Shown: positions 15,769 through 61,483 of the stretch, one piece after another
Layout of the letters: each line of letters begins with the position of its first letter
Position numbering within the stretch: position 1 is the first letter of the stretch
The notes under the pieces: model-generated
The model's input: the letters and a program-made list of their open reading frames with translations, nothing else
Databases searched by the model: none
Told to the model about the DNA's origin: nothing
Assembly: GCA_021810605.1 (NCBI GenBank)
Contig: JAJZIL010000001.1
Location: 67,412-131,411 of the forward strand
Reading direction: 5' to 3'
Length of the DNA stretch: 64,000 bases
Source: a bacterium
GTDB lineage: Bacteria; Patescibacteriota; Dojkabacteria; JAKAPS01; JAJZLI01
Position numbers and translations under genes: made by a program

Positions 15769-15832
15769 AAAAGTTATATATATATTAGTATTTATTGAAA
15801 ATTAAACTACAGAAGTGTAATATATAAGGTAT

Positions 15833-16465
15833 ATGAAAGTATATGATATTTCTTACTTACTAAATGAGTCTACTCCAATATATCCTGGGAATGCTAATTT
15901 TTCAATAAAAAGAGTTCAGAATATGCCTAAAGACAGTTCTAATTCATCAGCAATAACAATGGGTTCCCATTTTGCGACACATATAGATGCACCAGTTCAT
16001 GTAATAGAGGATGGTAAGGGTATAGATAAGTTCCCTATAGATAGATTTGTAGGAAAATGTGATGTATTAGATTTTTCTGTGCTAGATACAGAATCTATAG
16101 ATAAAAAAGATTTAGAAAAGAAGAATATAAAAAACAATATAGTTTTAATTAAAACAAAAAATTCTATTAGAGGGTTTGATATTTTTCATGAAGATTTCAT
16201 ATATTTGTCGGATAGTGGATCAGATTATCTATTGTCAAAGGGGGTAAAGCTTGTAGGTATAGATGGTCCTTCTATAAAAAAATTTAGATATCATCCTGAT
16301 TATGTGCATAACAATTTGCTAGGAAATGATTGTTTGATAGCAGAAGGGCTTAATTTATTAGAAGTTTTACAAGGAGAATATTTCTTTTTAGGAGCTCCTT
16401 TAAATTTTGAAGGTTCTGATGCTTCTCCTGCAAGAATTATTTTAATAGAGGATTTTTATGAATAA
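15833..16465 (+). CDS. cyclase-family metal-dependent hydrolase (kynurenine formamidase-like, PF04199-type)
   Basis: MGSHFATHIDAPVHV = HxGTHxDAPxH-type motif; 8-nt overlap with downstream gnd. Confidence 0.7.
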   Translation: MKVYDISYLLNESTPIYPGNANFSIKRVQNMPKDSSNSSAITMGSHFATHIDAPVHVIEDGKGIDKFPIDRFVGKCDVLDFSVLDTESIDKKDLEKKNIKNNIVLIKTKNSIRGFDIFHEDFIYLSDSGSDYLLSKGVKLVGIDGPSIKKFRYHPDYVHNNLLGNDCLIAEGLNLLEVLQGEYFFLGAPLNFEGSDASPARIILIEDFYE

Positions 16466-17378
16466 AAAAATAGCAATAATAGGTTTAGGTAAAATGGGTC
16501 TTAATATTGGATTAAATCTAAAAGATAAAAAAATCGATGTTTTTGGATTTACAGATACAAAAGAAGGTTTTGATTATGCAAAAGAGCAAGGGTTAGAAGT
16601 ATTTTCTACATTAGATGAAACTATTTCAAATTTTGGAGAGGATATTAGAATTTTTTGGTTGATGGTTCCTTCTCAAGCAGTAGATACGGTTTTATTTTCA
16701 GAATCTGAAGGTTTAGCAATAAAACTTAAAGAGGGAGATATAATTATAGATGGAGGAAATTCACACTATAAAGATTCCATAGAAAGATATAATAAACTTA
16801 AAAAGAAAGGTATTAATTTTATTGATTGTGGAACTTCAGGAGGAGTTGAAGGTGCTAGAAGAGGAGCTTGTCTTATGATTGGAGGAGATAAGGATATATA
16901 TAATCAAACTGAATGGATTTTTCAATCTGTTGCTATGGAAAATGGTTATGGATATATAGGAGAAGCTGGTTCTGGTCATTACGTTAAAATGATTCATAAT
17001 GCTATAGAGTATGGAATGCTACAATCTATAGCAGAAGGTGTAAATTTAGTTGAGAATGGGAAGTATCCAAATGTGAATATTGAATCTCTATTAGGGGTTT
17101 GGAATCATGGAAGTATTATCGAGTCATATCTAACTAAGGTTTTAGAAAAACAACTTAAAAATTACCCCAATTTGGATGAAATTGAGCCTGTTGTAGATGA
17201 CAATGGCGAGGGTGCTTGGACCATAATGGAAGCAATTGAGCAAAGAATTCCTCTTAGTGTTGGGGCAATCTCTCTTTTTGAAAGATATTCTTCAAAAGGA
17301 AAGGATGATGATGCTAATAAGTTTATAGCTCTTATGAGAAATGGTTTTGGAGGACATGCCATTACTAAAAAAGATTAA
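16458..17378 (+). CDS. gnd: 6-phosphogluconate dehydrogenase (decarboxylating), short YqeC-like form
   Basis: N-terminal Rossmann IAIIGLGKMGLNIGLNL; 6PGDH signature YVKMIHNAIEYGMLQSIAEG. Confidence 0.85.
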   Translation: MNKKIAIIGLGKMGLNIGLNLKDKKIDVFGFTDTKEGFDYAKEQGLEVFSTLDETISNFGEDIRIFWLMVPSQAVDTVLFSESEGLAIKLKEGDIIIDGGNSHYKDSIERYNKLKKKGINFIDCGTSGGVEGARRGACLMIGGDKDIYNQTEWIFQSVAMENGYGYIGEAGSGHYVKMIHNAIEYGMLQSIAEGVNLVENGKYPNVNIESLLGVWNHGSIIESYLTKVLEKQLKNYPNLDEIEPVVDDNGEGAWTIMEAIEQRIPLSVGAISLFERYSSKGKDDDANKFIALMRNGFGGHAITKKD

Positions 17379-17396
17379 TATTATTAAAAAAAAATT

Positions 17397-18059
17397 ATGA
17401 AGATATTTATAGATAGTGCTCAAATAGAACAAATAAAGGAGTTAGAAGATTTAGGTGTGATCTCAGGTATCACAACTAATCCCACTCTAGCTTCAGTTAC
17501 TGGGAAAAATTTTAAAGATTTAGTAAGTGAGATATTCTCTACTCTCTCTAAGGATAGAATAATAAATCTTGAAGTTATAGCTACAGATTATGAAACTATT
17601 TTAAAACAAGCTAGAGCTCTTGCTGCTTTAGATAATAGAGTAGTTGTAAAAATACCTTGTATTCCAGATGGTCTAAAAGCTTGTAAAAAACTTTCAGAAG
17701 AAGGTATTCGTGTAAATATAACTTTAGTTTTCTCTCCTATGCAGGCACTTTTATGTGCTAATGCAGGTGCATATTTTGTATCCCCTTTTGTAGGAAGATT
17801 AGAGGATATATCTGTAGATGGAATGGAGATTGTATCTGAAATAGTTAAAATATATAAAAATTATGATTATAAGACGCAAATTCTTTTTGCTTCTGTAAGA
17901 TCTGTTGAGCATATAAGATTAGCAGCTCTTGCAGGTGTTGATGTAGTTACTTCTCCTTATGAGTATATAAAAGAATTATATAAACATCCTCTAACAGATA
18001 CAGGATTAGCTAAATTTTTAAAAGATTGGACTGATGCTAAGGAGGAGTTCATTGTATGA
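17397..18059 (+). CDS. tal: transaldolase (short Fsa/TalC-type)
   Basis: MKIFIDSAQIEQIKELEDLGVISGITTNPTLA and internal VVVKIP (Schiff-base Lys region); 220 aa. Confidence 0.85.
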   Translation: MKIFIDSAQIEQIKELEDLGVISGITTNPTLASVTGKNFKDLVSEIFSTLSKDRIINLEVIATDYETILKQARALAALDNRVVVKIPCIPDGLKACKKLSEEGIRVNITLVFSPMQALLCANAGAYFVSPFVGRLEDISVDGMEIVSEIVKIYKNYDYKTQILFASVRSVEHIRLAALAGVDVVTSPYEYIKELYKHPLTDTGLAKFLKDWTDAKEEFIV

Positions 18060-18484
18060 ATATCTATATAGCTTCAGATCATAGAGGTTTTGATCTAAAA
18101 ACTGAGGTTATAGAGTATTTAAAATCTGAGAAAATTCTCGATATGGGGCCTTTTGAATATAATCATGAAGATGATTATCCTATTTTTGCACATCTTGTTG
18201 CAAAAAAAGTTTTAGAGAATCCAGATTCTTTTGGAATCCTTATTTGTGATACTGGTTTGGGTATGGATATGACTGCAAATAAATATAAGGGAATTCGAGC
18301 AGCATTGTGCACTGATTCATTTTTTGCTTATAGAGCAAGATTACATAATGACGCAAATATACTCGTTTTATCTGCTGAATATGATAAAATTGATTTCAGA
18401 GAAATAGTTAAAATGTTTTTTTCTACTCAACCTTCAGAAGAAATAAGACATAAAAGGAGAGTAAAAGAGATAGATGAATTATGA
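18056..18484 (+). CDS. rpiB: ribose-5-phosphate isomerase B
   Basis: MNIYIASDHRGFDLK ... ILICDTGLGMDMTANKYKGIRAALC matches the RpiB/LacAB family. Confidence 0.9.
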   Translation: MNIYIASDHRGFDLKTEVIEYLKSEKILDMGPFEYNHEDDYPIFAHLVAKKVLENPDSFGILICDTGLGMDMTANKYKGIRAALCTDSFFAYRARLHNDANILVLSAEYDKIDFREIVKMFFSTQPSEEIRHKRRVKEIDEL

Positions 18485-19086
18485 TTATTCCTGCAATATT
18501 AGAAAATAATAAAGAATCCTTAATAAAAAGAGTTAATCAAGTAAAGTCTTTTTCAAGAAAAGTTCATATAGATATAATGGATCAGACTCTTACAGATCAA
18601 AGAACTCTCTCCATTTCAGATATTCCATTAGATTTACCTGTTCAGATAGAGTTACATTTAATGGTTACTACTCCTAGTCTATATCTAGAAAGTATAAAGA
18701 ATCTTAATCCATACAAATTAATAATTCACTCAGAGAGTGATATTTTTGAAAAAGAAGTAAATTTAATGAGAAATTTTTTTAATATTTATGCAGGTGTTAA
18801 TATTAATACTCCAGTAGACGAAGTTATATCAATTAAAGAGAAATTAGCAGGAGTTCTCTTAATGTCAGTTAATATGGGTGCTTCAGGAAAAAATTTTAAT
18901 ATAAAAGTTCTTGATAAAGTAAAGGAAGTTTCTCAATATTTTTCAAATATACAATTAGATGGGGGAATAAATGAGGAAAATCTAAGTATTTGCAAATCAT
19001 TAGGGGTAAAAGATTTTGCAATTCATACTACACTTTTTTCAAGTCCTAATATAGAAGATGAATTTTTAAAACTCAAAGAATTGTAA
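18481..19086 (+). CDS. rpe: ribulose-phosphate 3-epimerase-like
   Basis: IIPAIL ... VHIDIMDQTL ... LDGGINEENL parallels RPE IAPSIL ... HVDVMDGHF ... VDGGIN; somewhat divergent. Confidence 0.65.
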   Translation: MIIPAILENNKESLIKRVNQVKSFSRKVHIDIMDQTLTDQRTLSISDIPLDLPVQIELHLMVTTPSLYLESIKNLNPYKLIIHSESDIFEKEVNLMRNFFNIYAGVNINTPVDEVISIKEKLAGVLLMSVNMGASGKNFNIKVLDKVKEVSQYFSNIQLDGGINEENLSICKSLGVKDFAIHTTLFSSPNIEDEFLKLKEL

Positions 19087-19134: not shown

Positions 19135-20277
19135 ATGAGAAATGAAACAGATACTTTTCCAGATTCTAAGGTTAGTAAAGAAGATTCTTTAAGAGATACT
19201 AAAAGTTCTATTCAAACTACATTAAGACATTTCAGAGAATTTAATAATAATGCCCCTACTTTTTCTGTTGAAGGACAAGAGAGACTAGATTCTAAAGAAT
19301 CTAGTGTGACCTATGAGTATAATACACTAATAGATGAAAAAACTGGACAAAAGTATAGAATTGCAATTCTTAATAAAGAAGAATTAGATAAAGGTACTGT
19401 TCCTACTATTTTAACATTACAGTTTAATACTATAGTTGAGCATGGTTCTATGAATTATTTTGCTCAAGAAATTTCTCAAGGAGGCAGACCTGTAATTATT
19501 ATAGAAAGTCCTTCTATTGGTAAGTCATCTGATATGACAAAAGAACAATTTTTTACTTTAAGAAAAGGGGATAACCCATTTTCAGAAATATCAGAGAGCT
19601 TATTAAGAAGTTTAAATCCTATATTAAAGGTTAATAATGGAACAAATAAGCAGATAGATGTAGCAGGATATTCTCAGGGTGCTATTACAGCTTTAAGTAT
19701 TACAGAAGTTGCAAATTCCTTAGGAATAAGTGTGAGAAAAGCTTTCTTGTTAGAGATTCCTGGAGTAAAAGATTTTGCAAAAGAAGGGGGGAATTTTAAA
19801 AAATTTAAATCAAGTGCAAAAATTATGGCAGCATTTATTTCTGAAGGAGCAAATTTATCTTGGTATCAAAATGATCCACATGATAAAAAACAAAGAATTG
19901 TTAGTGGAGTAGAAGTTCCGGAGAATTCAGTAAAGATTTATGGAAGGTTCGTAAAGAATCTAGCAATTAAACCTATTTTTAGAAAAGGAATCTTAACTGC
20001 ATATCCAACTGCTATGGCAAGGAGAGTAGTTCCAAATATATTAAATGCTGCTTTAGAAAAACAGCCTGATATGAAATGTATTTTCTTAAGTGGTTCTGAT
20101 AGTAATATTACCCTTAAGGAAGATATATATGACTCAATAAAACCATATCTTAATACTGGTAGGATAAGACGAATTATTCTTCCTGGAGATACTCATTCAG
20201 TTGGAGAAAGAGCTAAAAGAGTAGGTTCTTTATTTAGAAGAACTATGGATGATACAATCACAAAACTATCAAAATAA
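19135..20277 (+). CDS. alpha/beta-hydrolase-like protein (GxSxG nucleophile elbow)
   Basis: VAGYSQGAITAL (G-Y-S-Q-G) and later PGDTHS; otherwise no specific family recognised. Confidence 0.45.
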   Translation: MRNETDTFPDSKVSKEDSLRDTKSSIQTTLRHFREFNNNAPTFSVEGQERLDSKESSVTYEYNTLIDEKTGQKYRIAILNKEELDKGTVPTILTLQFNTIVEHGSMNYFAQEISQGGRPVIIIESPSIGKSSDMTKEQFFTLRKGDNPFSEISESLLRSLNPILKVNNGTNKQIDVAGYSQGAITALSITEVANSLGISVRKAFLLEIPGVKDFAKEGGNFKKFKSSAKIMAAFISEGANLSWYQNDPHDKKQRIVSGVEVPENSVKIYGRFVKNLAIKPIFRKGILTAYPTAMARRVVPNILNAALEKQPDMKCIFLSGSDSNITLKEDIYDSIKPYLNTGRIRRIILPGDTHSVGERAKRVGSLFRRTMDDTITKLSK

Positions 20278-20636: not shown

Positions 20637-22097
20637 TTATTCCCAATTTCTAGAATCTTTCTTTATAAATTCATCTAAATTACTAGGACCTTTACTTCTA
20701 GGTTCATAAATAATAGGTGAAATATTTTTTATGTCATTTTCTATTTTATCAACTAATCTCCAAGCATTTTCTATCTCATCAGAACGTGTAAAATTAATCT
20801 GATTTCCTAGAATACAGTCTATTAAAAGTTTTTCGTATTCACTTTTTAATTCTCCAAAATAATCAGAATATTTATATAACATATCTATATCTGATAATAT
20901 ATAATCTGACACAGAGGGGATTTTTCCTAGAAGATTTAATTCAATTCCTAAATCAGGTTGTATTAGAAATTTTAATATATTAGGTTTATTAGATCCTTTA
21001 AAAAGTCTAGATCCATTTTTTTTAAAAATTACTGATATTTCAGTCCTTTTTTCATTTAAATATTTTCCTGTTTGTACATATATTGGTATACTACTCCATC
21101 TATCATTTTGGATTTTTAATTTTAGGGCAATAAAAGTCTCTCTTTTTGATTCTGAAGAGACATTATTCTCTTCCTTATATCCTTTGTACTGTGCTTTTAG
21201 AGAAGATTCATAAATTATAGATTTTAATATATTATTTTTTTCTTCTCTTATATATTCCTCTTTAAACTCATGAGGTTTTTCCATTGTAAGGATAGAGAGA
21301 ATTTGTAGTATATGATTTTGGAAGACATCAATAAGTGCTCCATTTGCATCATAAAAGGCTCCTCTATCTTCAACACCCATATCTTCTAATACCTTAATCT
21401 GTATATTATCTATATAATCCTTATTCCATATATTTTCGAATATATTATTTGCAAACCTAAATGAAAATATATTCTGTACAGGTTCTTTTCCTAAATAATG
21501 GTCGATTCTGAATATTTGTTTTTCACTAAATCCAGAGAGTATAGTTTTGTTAAGTTCGATAGAACTTTCAAGGTTATGTCCAAAAGGTTTTTCTAATATT
21601 ATTCTTGTGAAAGTTGAATGTTCTTTACATGGTATATTAAGTCCTGTATCTATAAGAGAAGATATAGTTTCATTATATATTGCAGGTGGAAGTGCTAGAT
21701 AAAATATTCTTGAGTTACAGACTTTATCAAGCTCTACTTTTAACCTTATTAATTCACTCTTTTTAGTAAAATCACATTTAAAATATTTAATCCTATTATA
21801 AAAATCATCTCTTTCTTTTTTTTGCGGAATAGTATCATTAAATCTTGATGTAAAGTCACTATTACTACTATCAATTCTGCCAAGAGCAATTATATTAAAT
21901 TTATCTTTAAACGAGGAATCTGTATATAAATTATATAAAGATGGAAATAATTTTCTGTGTGCTAGATCTCCTGTTGCTCCAAAAATTACAATATCAATAC
22001 TTTTTTCAAAAATTTCTTTATTAAATTCCATAAATTTATGTATATTTACTAAGTTTCTCTTTCTCCTTTTCAAATCCTGGTTTTGATAGCAAGGCAT
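20637..22097 (-). CDS. zwf: glucose-6-phosphate 1-dehydrogenase
   Basis: VIFGATGDLAHRKLFPSLYNLY (NADP-binding) and RIDHYLGKE active-site motif. True start may be the internal Met at 22031 (MEFNKEIF...), which would remove the 62-nt overlap with pgi. Confidence 0.9.
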   Translation of the reverse strand: MPCYQNQDLKRRKRNLVNIHKFMEFNKEIFEKSIDIVIFGATGDLAHRKLFPSLYNLYTDSSFKDKFNIIALGRIDSSNSDFTSRFNDTIPQKKERDDFYNRIKYFKCDFTKKSELIRLKVELDKVCNSRIFYLALPPAIYNETISSLIDTGLNIPCKEHSTFTRIILEKPFGHNLESSIELNKTILSGFSEKQIFRIDHYLGKEPVQNIFSFRFANNIFENIWNKDYIDNIQIKVLEDMGVEDRGAFYDANGALIDVFQNHILQILSILTMEKPHEFKEEYIREEKNNILKSIIYESSLKAQYKGYKEENNVSSESKRETFIALKLKIQNDRWSSIPIYVQTGKYLNEKRTEISVIFKKNGSRLFKGSNKPNILKFLIQPDLGIELNLLGKIPSVSDYILSDIDMLYKYSDYFGELKSEYEKLLIDCILGNQINFTRSDEIENAWRLVDKIENDIKNISPIIYEPRSKGPSNLDEFIKKDSRNWE

Positions 22098-23334
22098 ACA
22101 TATATTCTTTTCCTTTTTCTACTCCAGGTTGATTAAATGTATTTATATTGAACATAACTCCAAGATAGGATACAGCCATTTCAAAAAAGAAAAATAGTTC
22201 TCCCAAGCTATTTTCATTGATCCTATCTATAAAAATAGTCCCATTAGTTCTACTATTTTCCATTAAAGATATACTAGTAGCTAATCTTTCTTTTTTGATA
22301 ATGTCTTCAAAAGATACATTATCAAGGTATGATACCTCAGATAAATTTGTTTTAATTTTTATATTACTATCAAAATGATCAGGAATGATAAATGTTATTA
22401 CTTTATCATTAGGCCCTTCATTATATAACTGTATCTGAGAGTGCTGATCAGTTGATCCTAAAGAAGCAATTGGAGTTATTCCTGCATAGATTTCTTTATT
22501 ATCTAATGAGAGTTTTTTCCCTAGACTTTCAGCCCAAAGTTGTCTATACCAAAATCCAAATCTTTCTAACCTTTTAGAATAAGGCATAAGTACAGAAATA
22601 TTTTTTTTCATTTTACTGAAATAAAGATATTGTAGTTGAGAAAATGCTAATGCATCATTATATTCAGGATCTAGACTATTAGTTTGCTCATCAATTTCTT
22701 GAGCTCCCTTTATCATATTATCTATATTAAGTCCCATTATATCTACAGTAAGAAGTCCAATTATAGAAAGTACTGAAAACCTATCTCCTACATTACTAAT
22801 TCCTTCTATTATCTGAATATTGTATTCAGAAGCGAGATCTCTTATAGTACTTTTTGGCTCTGAGGTAGTTATTATTATATGATCTTCAACTTTATCTCTT
22901 CCCATTTGTTTTTCAATTTGAGATTCTATATAAAGGAAATTTGCTATAATCTCAATTGTTTCTCCTGATTTAGATATTATATTAAAAACACTATCTTCTA
23001 GAGAAATATTATTAAAAAAAGAATCTAATTCGTCAGGATCAGTATTAGATCCTATAAAAAGAATGTTAACCCCACTTTTATTTTCAAGTGCATTAACTAT
23101 TGTTCTAGATCCCAAGTCAGATCCTCCAATACCCACAATTACATAATTTTTATATTTCTTTCGAATTTCTTCTCCTATACTTTTAATTTCTTCTACATTA
23201 GAGTAAATGAGGTTTCTAAAAGTAAGTTTATCTTTATTAATACTTTCTCTTTCTAGTTTAAAAAAATCTCCTTTTGATAAAGAGAGATCTTTTATTTGAG
23301 GGGACAACATGTTTGTATAATCGTATCTTAACAT
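22036..23334 (-). CDS. pgi: glucose-6-phosphate isomerase
   Basis: GIGGSDLGSRT and the PGI signature GSTDQHSQIQL. Confidence 0.9.
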   Translation of the reverse strand: MLRYDYTNMLSPQIKDLSLSKGDFFKLERESINKDKLTFRNLIYSNVEEIKSIGEEIRKKYKNYVIVGIGGSDLGSRTIVNALENKSGVNILFIGSNTDPDELDSFFNNISLEDSVFNIISKSGETIEIIANFLYIESQIEKQMGRDKVEDHIIITTSEPKSTIRDLASEYNIQIIEGISNVGDRFSVLSIIGLLTVDIMGLNIDNMIKGAQEIDEQTNSLDPEYNDALAFSQLQYLYFSKMKKNISVLMPYSKRLERFGFWYRQLWAESLGKKLSLDNKEIYAGITPIASLGSTDQHSQIQLYNEGPNDKVITFIIPDHFDSNIKIKTNLSEVSYLDNVSFEDIIKKERLATSISLMENSRTNGTIFIDRINENSLGELFFFFEMAVSYLGVMFNINTFNQPGVEKGKEYMYALLSKPGFEKEKEKLSKYT

Positions 23335-59630: not shown

Positions 59631-60491
59631 ATGCTCAACGATATTACTGATAAAAAAGTAAAATTTTTAGAAGAAAAAGCATTAGAAATAAGGGAAGCAA
59701 TAATACATATGCTCTTGACTGCTAAGTCAGGTCATACTGCAGGTCCTTTAGGTTTAGCTGATATATTTTCTGTTCTATATTTTCATACTCTAAATCATTT
59801 TCCTCATGATCCAGAATGGGAAGATCGAGATAGATTGATTCTATCTAATGGTCATGTTTGTCCTGTTAGATATGCAACTATGGCTCTATCTGGTTATTTC
59901 CCTTTAAAAGAATTATCCACTCTTAGACAATTAGATTCAAGATTACAAGGTCATCCTCATAGGACTTCACTACCTGGGCTTGAAACTACATCTGGACCAT
60001 TAGGAGAGGGAATTTCACAGGCAATAGGTATCGCTTTATCTGCAAAACTAGATCAGAAAGATTATCATGTGTATGTTATTACTGGAGATGGTGAACATAA
60101 TGAAGGCAATATCTGGGAATCTATTATGATGGGATCAAGATATAAATTAGATAATCTTACTGTCATAATAGATAGAAATAATATACAAATTGATGGTTTT
60201 ACTGAAAATGTTATGCCTCTTGATGATTTAAGTGCAAAATATGAATCATTTGGATGGTTTGTAATTGATATAGATGGGAATAATATAAGTGAGATTGCTC
60301 AGTCTCTTGCAAAAGTGCAAAATATTCATGAGAAACCGACTGTAATAATTGCACATACTATTCCTGGAAAAGGGGTTGATTTTATGCAGAATGATTATCT
60401 TTGGCATGGAAAACCTCCAAAACCAGATGAAGCAAAGGTTGCTTTAAAGGAGCTTAGAACACTTAAAAATAAAATTGAGAATGATTATTAA
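59631..60491 (+). CDS. transketolase, N-terminal (TPP-binding) subunit
   Basis: SGHTAGPLGLADIFSVLYFHTLNHFPHDPEWEDRDRLILSNGH and GDGEHNEGNIWE (TPP motif). Confidence 0.9.
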   Translation: MLNDITDKKVKFLEEKALEIREAIIHMLLTAKSGHTAGPLGLADIFSVLYFHTLNHFPHDPEWEDRDRLILSNGHVCPVRYATMALSGYFPLKELSTLRQLDSRLQGHPHRTSLPGLETTSGPLGEGISQAIGIALSAKLDQKDYHVYVITGDGEHNEGNIWESIMMGSRYKLDNLTVIIDRNNIQIDGFTENVMPLDDLSAKYESFGWFVIDIDGNNISEIAQSLAKVQNIHEKPTVIIAHTIPGKGVDFMQNDYLWHGKPPKPDEAKVALKELRTLKNKIENDY

Positions 60492-60493
60492 TT

Positions 60494-61483
60494 ATGTTAA
60501 ATGATGAACTATTTTTAAATAAAAATATATTTTCTGATTCTGTAGAAAAAAAGGCTACAAGAGAGGGATATGGTGATGAACTGGTAATCTTAGGAGATGA
60601 AAATAATAATATAGTTGTTCTTACTGCAGATCTAGCAGAGTCTACTAAAGTAGATAAATTTCAAAAGAAATATCCAGATAGATTTTTTGAATGTGGTATA
60701 GCAGAGCAAAGTATGGTTGCTGTAGCTGCAGGGTTTGGAGTAAATGGTAAAAGAGCTTTTAGTTCATCATATGCAACTTTTTCTCCTGGAAAGAATTGGG
60801 AAACGATTCGTACTACCGTTGCATATAATGATTCTGATGTAAAAATAGCAGGACATCATGCAGGTCTTATGACCGCACAAGACGGTGCGACTCATCAAGC
60901 ATTAGAAGATATAGCTCTTATGAGAGTTCTTCCTAATATGAAAGTACTTTGTCCATGTGATTATTATGAAGCTATGAAAGTTACAAAAACTGCAGGAGAA
61001 AACTATGGCCCATTTTATCTAAGATTTACAAGAGAGGTTACTCCTGTAATTACTACTGAAGCTACTCCATTTACACTTGGAGAAAATTATTCTTATTGGA
61101 TAAGTGAAAAACCTCAGTGTATAGTCTTTGCAACAGGTTATACTCTTTATTATGCACTTCTGGCTGCAAGTTTACTTAAAAAGGAAGGTATAGAATTAGA
61201 AGTAATAAATATTTCTTCTATAAAACCTATAAATAAAGAATTTATAGTATCTAAGGTTAAGAATGTGAGAAAAGTACTAACAGTAGAAGATCATCAAGTT
61301 GCAGGAGGAATGGGGTCTTTAATAGCTGAGATTCTTTCTCAAGAGTGCCCATCCTTTATAGAATTTGTTGGTATGAATGATCAATTTGGAGAATCAGGGA
61401 CTTTTTCAGAACTTGTATCAAAGTATAGTATAGATGAGAAAGGTATAATAAAATTAATTTACAAATTATTAAAAAAATCATGA
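60494..61483 (+). CDS. transketolase, C-terminal (pyrimidine-binding) subunit
   Basis: FFECGIAEQSMVAVAAGF; immediately follows the N-terminal subunit gene (2-nt gap). Confidence 0.9.
   Translation: MLNDELFLNKNIFSDSVEKKATREGYGDELVILGDENNNIVVLTADLAESTKVDKFQKKYPDRFFECGIAEQSMVAVAAGFGVNGKRAFSSSYATFSPGKNWETIRTTVAYNDSDVKIAGHHAGLMTAQDGATHQALEDIALMRVLPNMKVLCPCDYYEAMKVTKTAGENYGPFYLRFTREVTPVITTEATPFTLGENYSYWISEKPQCIVFATGYTLYYALLAASLLKKEGIELEVINISSIKPINKEFIVSKVKNVRKVLTVEDHQVAGGMGSLIAEILSQECPSFIEFVGMNDQFGESGTFSELVSKYSIDEKGIIKLIYKLLKKS

Follow-up and report, generated by a model that had tools for sequence, protein, structure and literature searches.

Organization of the locus

The gene under study encodes a cyclase family (PF04199) protein of 210 aa, a candidate 6-phosphogluconolactonase (6PGL), and lies in a 64-kb stretch of contig JAJZIL010000001.1 from a member of the Dojkabacteria (GCA_021810605.1). 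This whole stretch, referred to as the window, is AT-rich with a GC content of about 27%. Gene identities were assigned by mechanical open reading frame (ORF) calling together with Pfam and NCBIfam scans. The cyclase gene (15833–16465, + strand; PF04199, 80.4 bits against a gathering threshold of 23.1) is the first in the order cyclase-gnd-tal-rpiB-rpe. The four genes that follow on the same strand encode a short-form decarboxylating 6-phosphogluconate dehydrogenase (gnd, 16458–17378; TIGR00872, 341 bits with a cut-off of 297), a tal/fsa-type transaldolase (17397–18059; PF00923), and the rpiB (18056–18484) and rpe (18481–19086) products, the latter two identified by Pfam/NCBIfam. The identical locus is also present in the metagenome-assembled genomes GCA_027425015.1 and GCA_027425055.1.

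The remaining genes of the pentose phosphate pathway (PPP) are found at two other sites. The pgi-zwf pair lies 1.5 kb downstream of the cluster on the opposite strand, with zwf (20637–22097, − strand; TIGR00871, 469 bits) encoding glucose-6-phosphate dehydrogenase, the producer of the lactone, and pgi (22036–23334, − strand; Pfam/NCBIfam) encoding glucose-6-phosphate isomerase upstream of it. A split transketolase is encoded at 59.6 kb by genes for an N-terminal subunit (59631–60491, + strand; PF00456, 205.7 bits) and a C-terminal subunit (60494–61483, + strand; PF02779 and PF02780). All of the genes named in the first-pass annotation of this DNA, including zwf, pgi and the split tkt, were recovered in this way.

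The first-pass annotation had also described the five clustered genes as packed with overlaps of 8 or 4 nt throughout. The cyclase stop and gnd start do overlap by 8 nt (ATGAATAA), and 4-nt ATGA overlaps are present at tal/rpiB and rpiB/rpe; however, the gnd stop and the tal start are separated by an 18-nt gap. A Shine-Dalgarno sequence (GAGGA) is located inside the cyclase gene, 5 nt 5' of the gnd ATG. Together, the 8-nt overlap and this internal Shine-Dalgarno sequence link expression of the cyclase to that of gnd.

The 64-nt gap 5' of the cyclase gene contains a promoter-like TTGAAA-17 nt-TAATAT sequence (15795–15823, + strand), and AAGG is found 4 nt ahead of the cyclase ATG. The promoter-like sequence is weak evidence: 73 such sites were found in the AT-rich window where 59 are expected, barely above background, and the promoter and terminator scan of the window was uninformative as a whole. 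In its longest form, the zwf ORF shares 62 nt with pgi. The true zwf start is probably Met23 (coordinate 22031), 4 nt past the pgi stop, which would make pgi and zwf a tightly spaced pair. Scans for tRNA genes and for Rfam families (at gathering score) were negative across all 64 kb.

An unassigned step between Zwf and Gnd in the window

The first-pass annotation noted that 6PGL has no recognizable homolog alongside these genes, and for the 64-kb window this stands. 6PGL activity has been invented independently at least twice, giving rise to the DevB and YbhE types. When stop-to-stop ORFs of at least 60 aa were searched with phmmer (E ≤ 1), neither a YbhE-type (E. coli) nor a DevB-type (Ralstonia) Pgl was found in the window. 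A DevB profile made from six sequences, the Ralstonia Pgl and five from the PDB, also gave no match (E ≤ 0.01), and there was no beta-propeller among window ORFs of 320–380 aa.

Directly past rpe there is a 380-aa ORF (hyp380, 19135–20277) that carries GYSQG, a nucleophile-elbow-like motif. It has no Pfam or NCBIfam match, and its family has only six members in 5.8 billion proteins. This ORF was considered as an alternative lactonase and rejected because it lacks a Pfam match, because its homologs number only six and are not near PPP genes, and because the corresponding operon of the closest relatives (L012 and L004) does not include it.

The cyclase protein

The metal-binding motif of the family, HxGTHxDxPxH, is present in the cyclase as H46-F-A-T-H50-I-D52-A-P-V-H56, with glycine replaced by alanine at the third position. 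An alignment of 56 homologs shows no variation at H50, D52, H56, H159 and E171 and almost none at H46. This pattern bears on the idea that the protein is a hitch-hiker or a regulatory partner with no catalytic role, such as an OpcA-like effector of Zwf. Accessory proteins such as OpcA are known beside zwf, and zwf-opcA-pgl operons are known in cyanobacteria and actinobacteria. The conservation of catalytic and metal-binding residues argues instead for an active enzyme, and a non-catalytic role is given only the slimmest chance.

The best NCBIfam match is to arylformamidase (TIGR03035, E = 2.8e-39), that is, to the kynurenine formamidase KynB (EC 3.5.1.9; PDB: 4CO9, 4COG, 4COB), and several features favor a genuine kynurenine (aryl)formamidase, which is how homologs are annotated by JGI; its place in the operon would then be incidental. 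Both proteins are about 210 aa in length and share an HxxTHxDxPxH motif. The metal ligands and catalytic histidine of Bacillus anthracis KynB (H50, H54, D56, H60, H161 and E173; PMC4243253) are all retained, corresponding in the residue map to H46, H50, D52, H56, H159 and E171. The AF2 model of the cyclase (pLDDT = 95.4) has the KynB/isatin hydrolase fold, with Foldseek TM values of 0.83–0.90 to solved relatives and 0.87–0.90 to the KynB structures. From this similarity, a dimeric, composite active site is expected.

The substrate pocket and the profile score point away from KynB. The TIGR03035 score of 135.2 bits is far under the equivalog cut-off of 223.05, and sequence identity to KynB is 29–32%. 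The narrow hydrophobic cavity that accommodates the KynB substrate is formed by Trp20, Val40, Val42 and Leu158 (PMC4243253). In the cyclase, the equivalent residues are Y17, S36, S38 and D156, so that only the aromatic position is retained and the walls facing an aryl group have been replaced by two serines and an aspartate; V40 and V42 of KynB, the counterparts of S36 and S38, come from the partner subunit. In the second shell, D151 of KynB is replaced by K149. The cyclase also contains a KTKNS motif (residues 107–111) that is absent from KynB and shared with 1R61 and 8HMO.

The structures with this motif are the closest solved relatives: 1R61/3KRV from Geobacillus and the Mn-bound 8HMO from Bacillus smithii (profile E = 2e-63 and 7e-59, respectively). 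They superimpose on the model with TM values of 0.83–0.85 for 1R61/3KRV and 0.90 for 8HMO. Unlike the cyclase clade, which has PSIKK, these proteins have LGIER at the corresponding position.

The cyclase is not a member of TIGR03035 as scored, and it belongs to neither of the established 6PGL families. DevB/Pgl (EC 3.1.1.31; PF01182, Glucosamine_iso fold) was not matched by phmmer or by the DevB profile; it has no sequence or fold relationship to the cyclase and is metal-independent, whereas the cyclase keeps a binuclear-metal site. YbhE/Pgl (PF10282; PDB: 1RI6) is a seven-bladed beta-propeller, unrelated to the KynB-like fold predicted for the cyclase, and gave no phmmer match.

Members of PF04199 such as KynB and isatin hydrolase are known for the hydrolysis of amides and lactams. 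The family also contains a phosphotriesterase (8F9X). It further includes the metal-dependent carboxylesterase MGS0169 (PDB: 5IBZ) and the trans-dienelactone hydrolase of Pseudomonas reinekei MT1 (PMC5341072), and lactone hydrolysis is thus within the repertoire of the fold. As is proposed for the cyclase, these two enzymes depend on a metal to hydrolyze the bond of a carboxylic ester or lactone; however, they are about 300 aa in length, have a modified QxxxQxDxxxH motif, act on hydrophobic substrates and are distant from the cyclase (15–17% identity, TM 0.56–0.80).

Association with zwf and gnd across genomes

A 19-sequence alignment was used as a query for cyclase loci in other genomes, and the best 80 of 273 confirmed loci, one genome per GTDB species, were compared. 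In 39 of these 80 loci, the cyclase shares the locus with zwf and/or gnd, usually within tens of bases. The first-pass annotation had proposed examining co-occurrence with zwf and gnd in relatives, and the outcome is strongly positive. It is also the kind of neighborhood expected of an EC 3.1.1.31 enzyme.

About nine gene orders are represented among the 39 PPP-linked loci. Some begin with the cyclase (cyc-gnd-tal followed by either rpiB-rpe or pgi-zwf, cyc-zwf-gnd, and cyc-gnd-zwf). Others have zwf ahead of it (zwf-gnd-cyc, zwf-cyc-gnd, zwf-cyc, and zwf-tktN-tktC-tal-cyc), and zwf-gnd-pgi-ROK kinase-cyc, pgi-zwf-gnd-cyc-HAD, and an archaeal glucose dehydrogenase family gene followed by gnd-cyc were also found. 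Since the adjacency recurs in so many arrangements, it exceeds what chance would produce. The hosts carry the Patescibacteria labels Nomura-, Taylor-, Specht-, Uhr-, Woese- and Shapirobacteria, Paceibacterota and Saccharibacteria; outside this group, they are Woesearchaeota (DPANN archaea) and one Gemmatimonadota metagenome-assembled genome.

In a neighbor-joining tree, the PPP-linked cyclases fall mainly in a single clade that has S-[IV]-K as its signature (residues 147–149) and is separate from the solved KynBs. Inside this K149 clade, zwf or gnd is found within 3.2 kb in 32 of 40 loci, compared to 5 of 40 outside it. The five exceptions consist of a small cyc-zwf-gnd group, the Gemmatimonadota locus and Woesearchaeota L022.

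Neighbors within 3 kb that were otherwise unlabeled in the PPP-linked loci (148 genes) were scanned with Pfam. No Glucosamine_iso, Lactonase or SGL family recurred among them, which leaves the cyclase as the one lactonase candidate in these neighborhoods, and kynurenine-pathway families were likewise not recurrent. Within the loci, the partners of the cyclase are zwf and gnd rather than genes of kynurenine metabolism such as kynA (TDO) and kynU, and an incidental placement cannot explain adjacency to zwf and gnd in about nine gene orders and two domains of life. Clustering with genuine KynB proteins, which the first-pass annotation had named as evidence against a lactonase, was not found in the profile score, the tree or the neighborhoods. 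A kynurenine formamidase function is for these reasons considered highly improbable.

In several loci, the module is close to redox-defense genes that consume NADPH, including thioredoxin reductase-like, AhpC-like and superoxide dismutase genes. Such neighbors fit a zwf-lactonase-gnd unit that generates NADPH. As a separate observation, Paceibacteria-type loci have a conserved ORF of 157–163 aa that is divergent from zwf, begins with a hydrophobic segment at the N terminus and is unmatched in Pfam (L011:5257–5730, − strand; equivalents in L009, L013, L017, L018, L019, L021, L025, L028 and L034).

Two Woesearchaeota loci differ in their first gene, having a member of the archaeal glucose dehydrogenase family (PF16912; L024:2343–3449 and L027:5981–7075) in place of zwf, followed by gnd and the cyclase. 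The PF16912 gene may encode an alternative first dehydrogenase of an archaeal oxidative PPP-like module, and here the cyclase is associated with a lactone-producing dehydrogenase of another fold. With no zwf in either locus, these cases would suit a lactonase that acts on unphosphorylated D-glucono-1,5-lactone, or broadly on aldonolactones, and that in some lineages at least feeds gluconate rather than 6-phosphogluconate. However, neither locus contains a gluconokinase gene. In most loci, the window among them, the cyclase is partnered by Zwf, which yields a phosphorylated lactone, and the clade-specific lysines suit an anionic group. A lactonase for the unphosphorylated lactone or for aldonolactones in general is accordingly considered quite unlikely.

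Locus-level exclusivity with DevB-type pgl

As a control, 80 zwf-anchored metagenome loci were sampled independently and searched with the DevB profile. A DevB-type pgl is beside zwf or gnd in 32 of these 80 loci, in arrangements that include DevB-gnd-zwf, gnd-zwf-DevB and zwf-DevB. In contrast, the profile detected no DevB in the 39 cyclase loci with PPP genes. One of the zwf-anchored loci (L167) has the cyclase instead of DevB, and the two genes were found together in none of 119 loci. At the level of the locus, the two genes are thus mutually exclusive, and the cyclase occupies the operon slot next to zwf and gnd that is taken elsewhere by DevB. An annotated 6PGL has been reported in the literature from some Patescibacteria, so the phylum may harbor the canonical solution alongside the cyclase-based one.

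Zwf and a short-form Gnd, the enzymes on either side of the lactonase step, also occur fused in single ORFs of about 800 aa (L088:5926–8346, L091:1416–3803, L094:2–2440 and L096:4663–7062). Neither DevB nor the cyclase is present in these four loci. In L088, the fusion is followed by rpiB, a LOG/SLOG-family gene, rpe, tkt and tal.

The wider family

Other members of the KTxNS subfamily are found next to different genes of sugar phosphate metabolism. In Acidobacteria, the cyclase homolog is followed by enolase in seven loci (L050, L051, L052, L069, L074, L081 and L082), and in Blastocatellia by a KDPG/KHG aldolase gene in three (L046, L066 and L077) or by glgC in one (L070). These enolase-, aldolase- and glgC-linked members have aspartate or glutamate at the K149 position. 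The Bacillaceae gene resembling 1R61 sits between a SIS (hxlB-like) gene and a HAD Hydrolase_3 gene plus HxlR, and an Andersenbacteria-type subclade precedes a NeuB-SAF-AP_endonuc_2 gene. The members in these last contexts include L169:1409–2026 (P0036), P0046 and L168:5001–5567 (P0079). The varied neighbors suggest a broader sugar phosphate theme, with precise substrates that may differ from one branch to another.

The search for gene fusions covered the 150 top-ranked representatives of the family, out of 14,393. Those recovered were tandem cyclases, a fusion of a class II aldolase with a cyclase (Aldolase_II::cyclase, P0185) and a probable RNase H artefact.

These contexts bear on the reading that the cyclase hydrolyzes some other sugar phosphate or PPP-related metabolite; it would then be expressed along with the oxidative branch but would not itself be the delta-lactonase. 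Its activity might be that of a phosphatase (or phosphoesterase) or of an esterase, or it might repair side products, for instance acylated adducts or the gamma-lactone. The enolase, KDPG aldolase and glgC neighbors in Acidobacteria, the hxlB-like SIS and HAD phosphatase neighbors in Bacillaceae, the class II aldolase fusion and the presence of a phosphotriesterase in PF04199 all speak for it. Set against them, the tight link is specific to zwf and gnd, including in loci with no non-oxidative genes, and lactone hydrolysis is the sole reaction between Zwf and Gnd. The cyclase also takes the DevB Pgl slot to the exclusion of DevB. A different sugar phosphate or PPP-related substrate is unlikely on balance.

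Interpretation

The favored interpretation, held with somewhat better than even confidence, is that the 210-aa cyclase is a metal-dependent 6PGL, non-homologous to DevB/Pgl and YbhE/Pgl, that acts between Zwf and Gnd. The first-pass annotation had proposed an analogous lactonase of this kind, and the co-occurrence with zwf and gnd together with the locus-level exclusivity with DevB-type pgl support it as a candidate. It is held with slightly less assurance, if still a little above even, that the PF04199 cyclase clade constitutes a third, evolutionarily independent 6PGL family, that it is the usual lactonase of the oxidative PPP in many Patescibacteria (candidate phyla radiation, CPR) and DPANN archaea, and that it is currently mis-annotated as arylformamidase or as a "cyclase family protein". 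Full-text searches of a literature library returned no paper linking PF04199 or KynB-like proteins to 6PGL or the PPP, and the assignment is apparently unpublished.

In the mechanism proposed here, the substrate, the metal and the roles of individual residues are drawn from sequence and homology. The protein would form a homodimer with a Zn2+ or Mn2+ center of one or two ions, with H46, H50, D52, H159 and E171 as predicted ligands by homology to KynB (PMC4243253). A water or hydroxide activated by the metal, with the assistance of His56, would attack C1 of 6-phospho-D-glucono-1,5-lactone. The resulting tetrahedral intermediate would collapse and open the ring to give 6-phosphogluconate, which would then be passed to Gnd, the product of the overlapping next cistron. 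K149/K150 and K107/K109 may bind the 6-phosphate, and D156 along with S36/S38 of the partner subunit may bind the sugar hydroxyls.

A number of observations weigh against the assignment as a 6PGL. K149 stands in place of an aspartate that positions a metal-binding histidine in KynB, and the metal site may differ as a result. Among solved structures, the closest relatives (1R61 and 8HMO) are uncharacterized proteins, and the Bacillaceae relative is found in an hxlB-like/HAD/HxlR context and not with zwf or gnd. Eight loci of the K149 clade lack both zwf and gnd within 3.2 kb; of these, L037 nevertheless belongs to a zwf-tkt-tal-cyclase operon. A related PSIKKK subclade adjoins a NeuB-type gene instead. 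No fusion of the cyclase with Zwf or Gnd was present among the top 150 family representatives. The exclusivity of the cyclase and DevB has a Fisher p of about 1e-7 from tests that ignore phylogenetic non-independence, and in 47 of the 80 zwf loci sampled neither of the two lies close by. A canonical pgl may be encoded elsewhere in the genome, beyond the 64 kb that were searched. Lastly, 6-phosphogluconolactone also hydrolyzes spontaneously, and a lactonase step is therefore not strictly required.

Significance

The cyclase fills the operon position of the seemingly missing lactonase not only in this genome but in dozens of other ultra-small bacteria and archaea. If the assignment as a 6PGL is true, it would close the gap that is usually left at the 6PGL step when the metabolism of CPR bacteria and DPANN archaea is reconstructed, and it would correct a widespread arylformamidase mis-annotation that wrongly implies tryptophan catabolism in organisms of minimal metabolism. 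A phosphosugar lactone would join amides, lactams and esters among the substrates of the PF04199 fold, and a reaction of central metabolism that has already been invented twice would have a third, metal-dependent solution.

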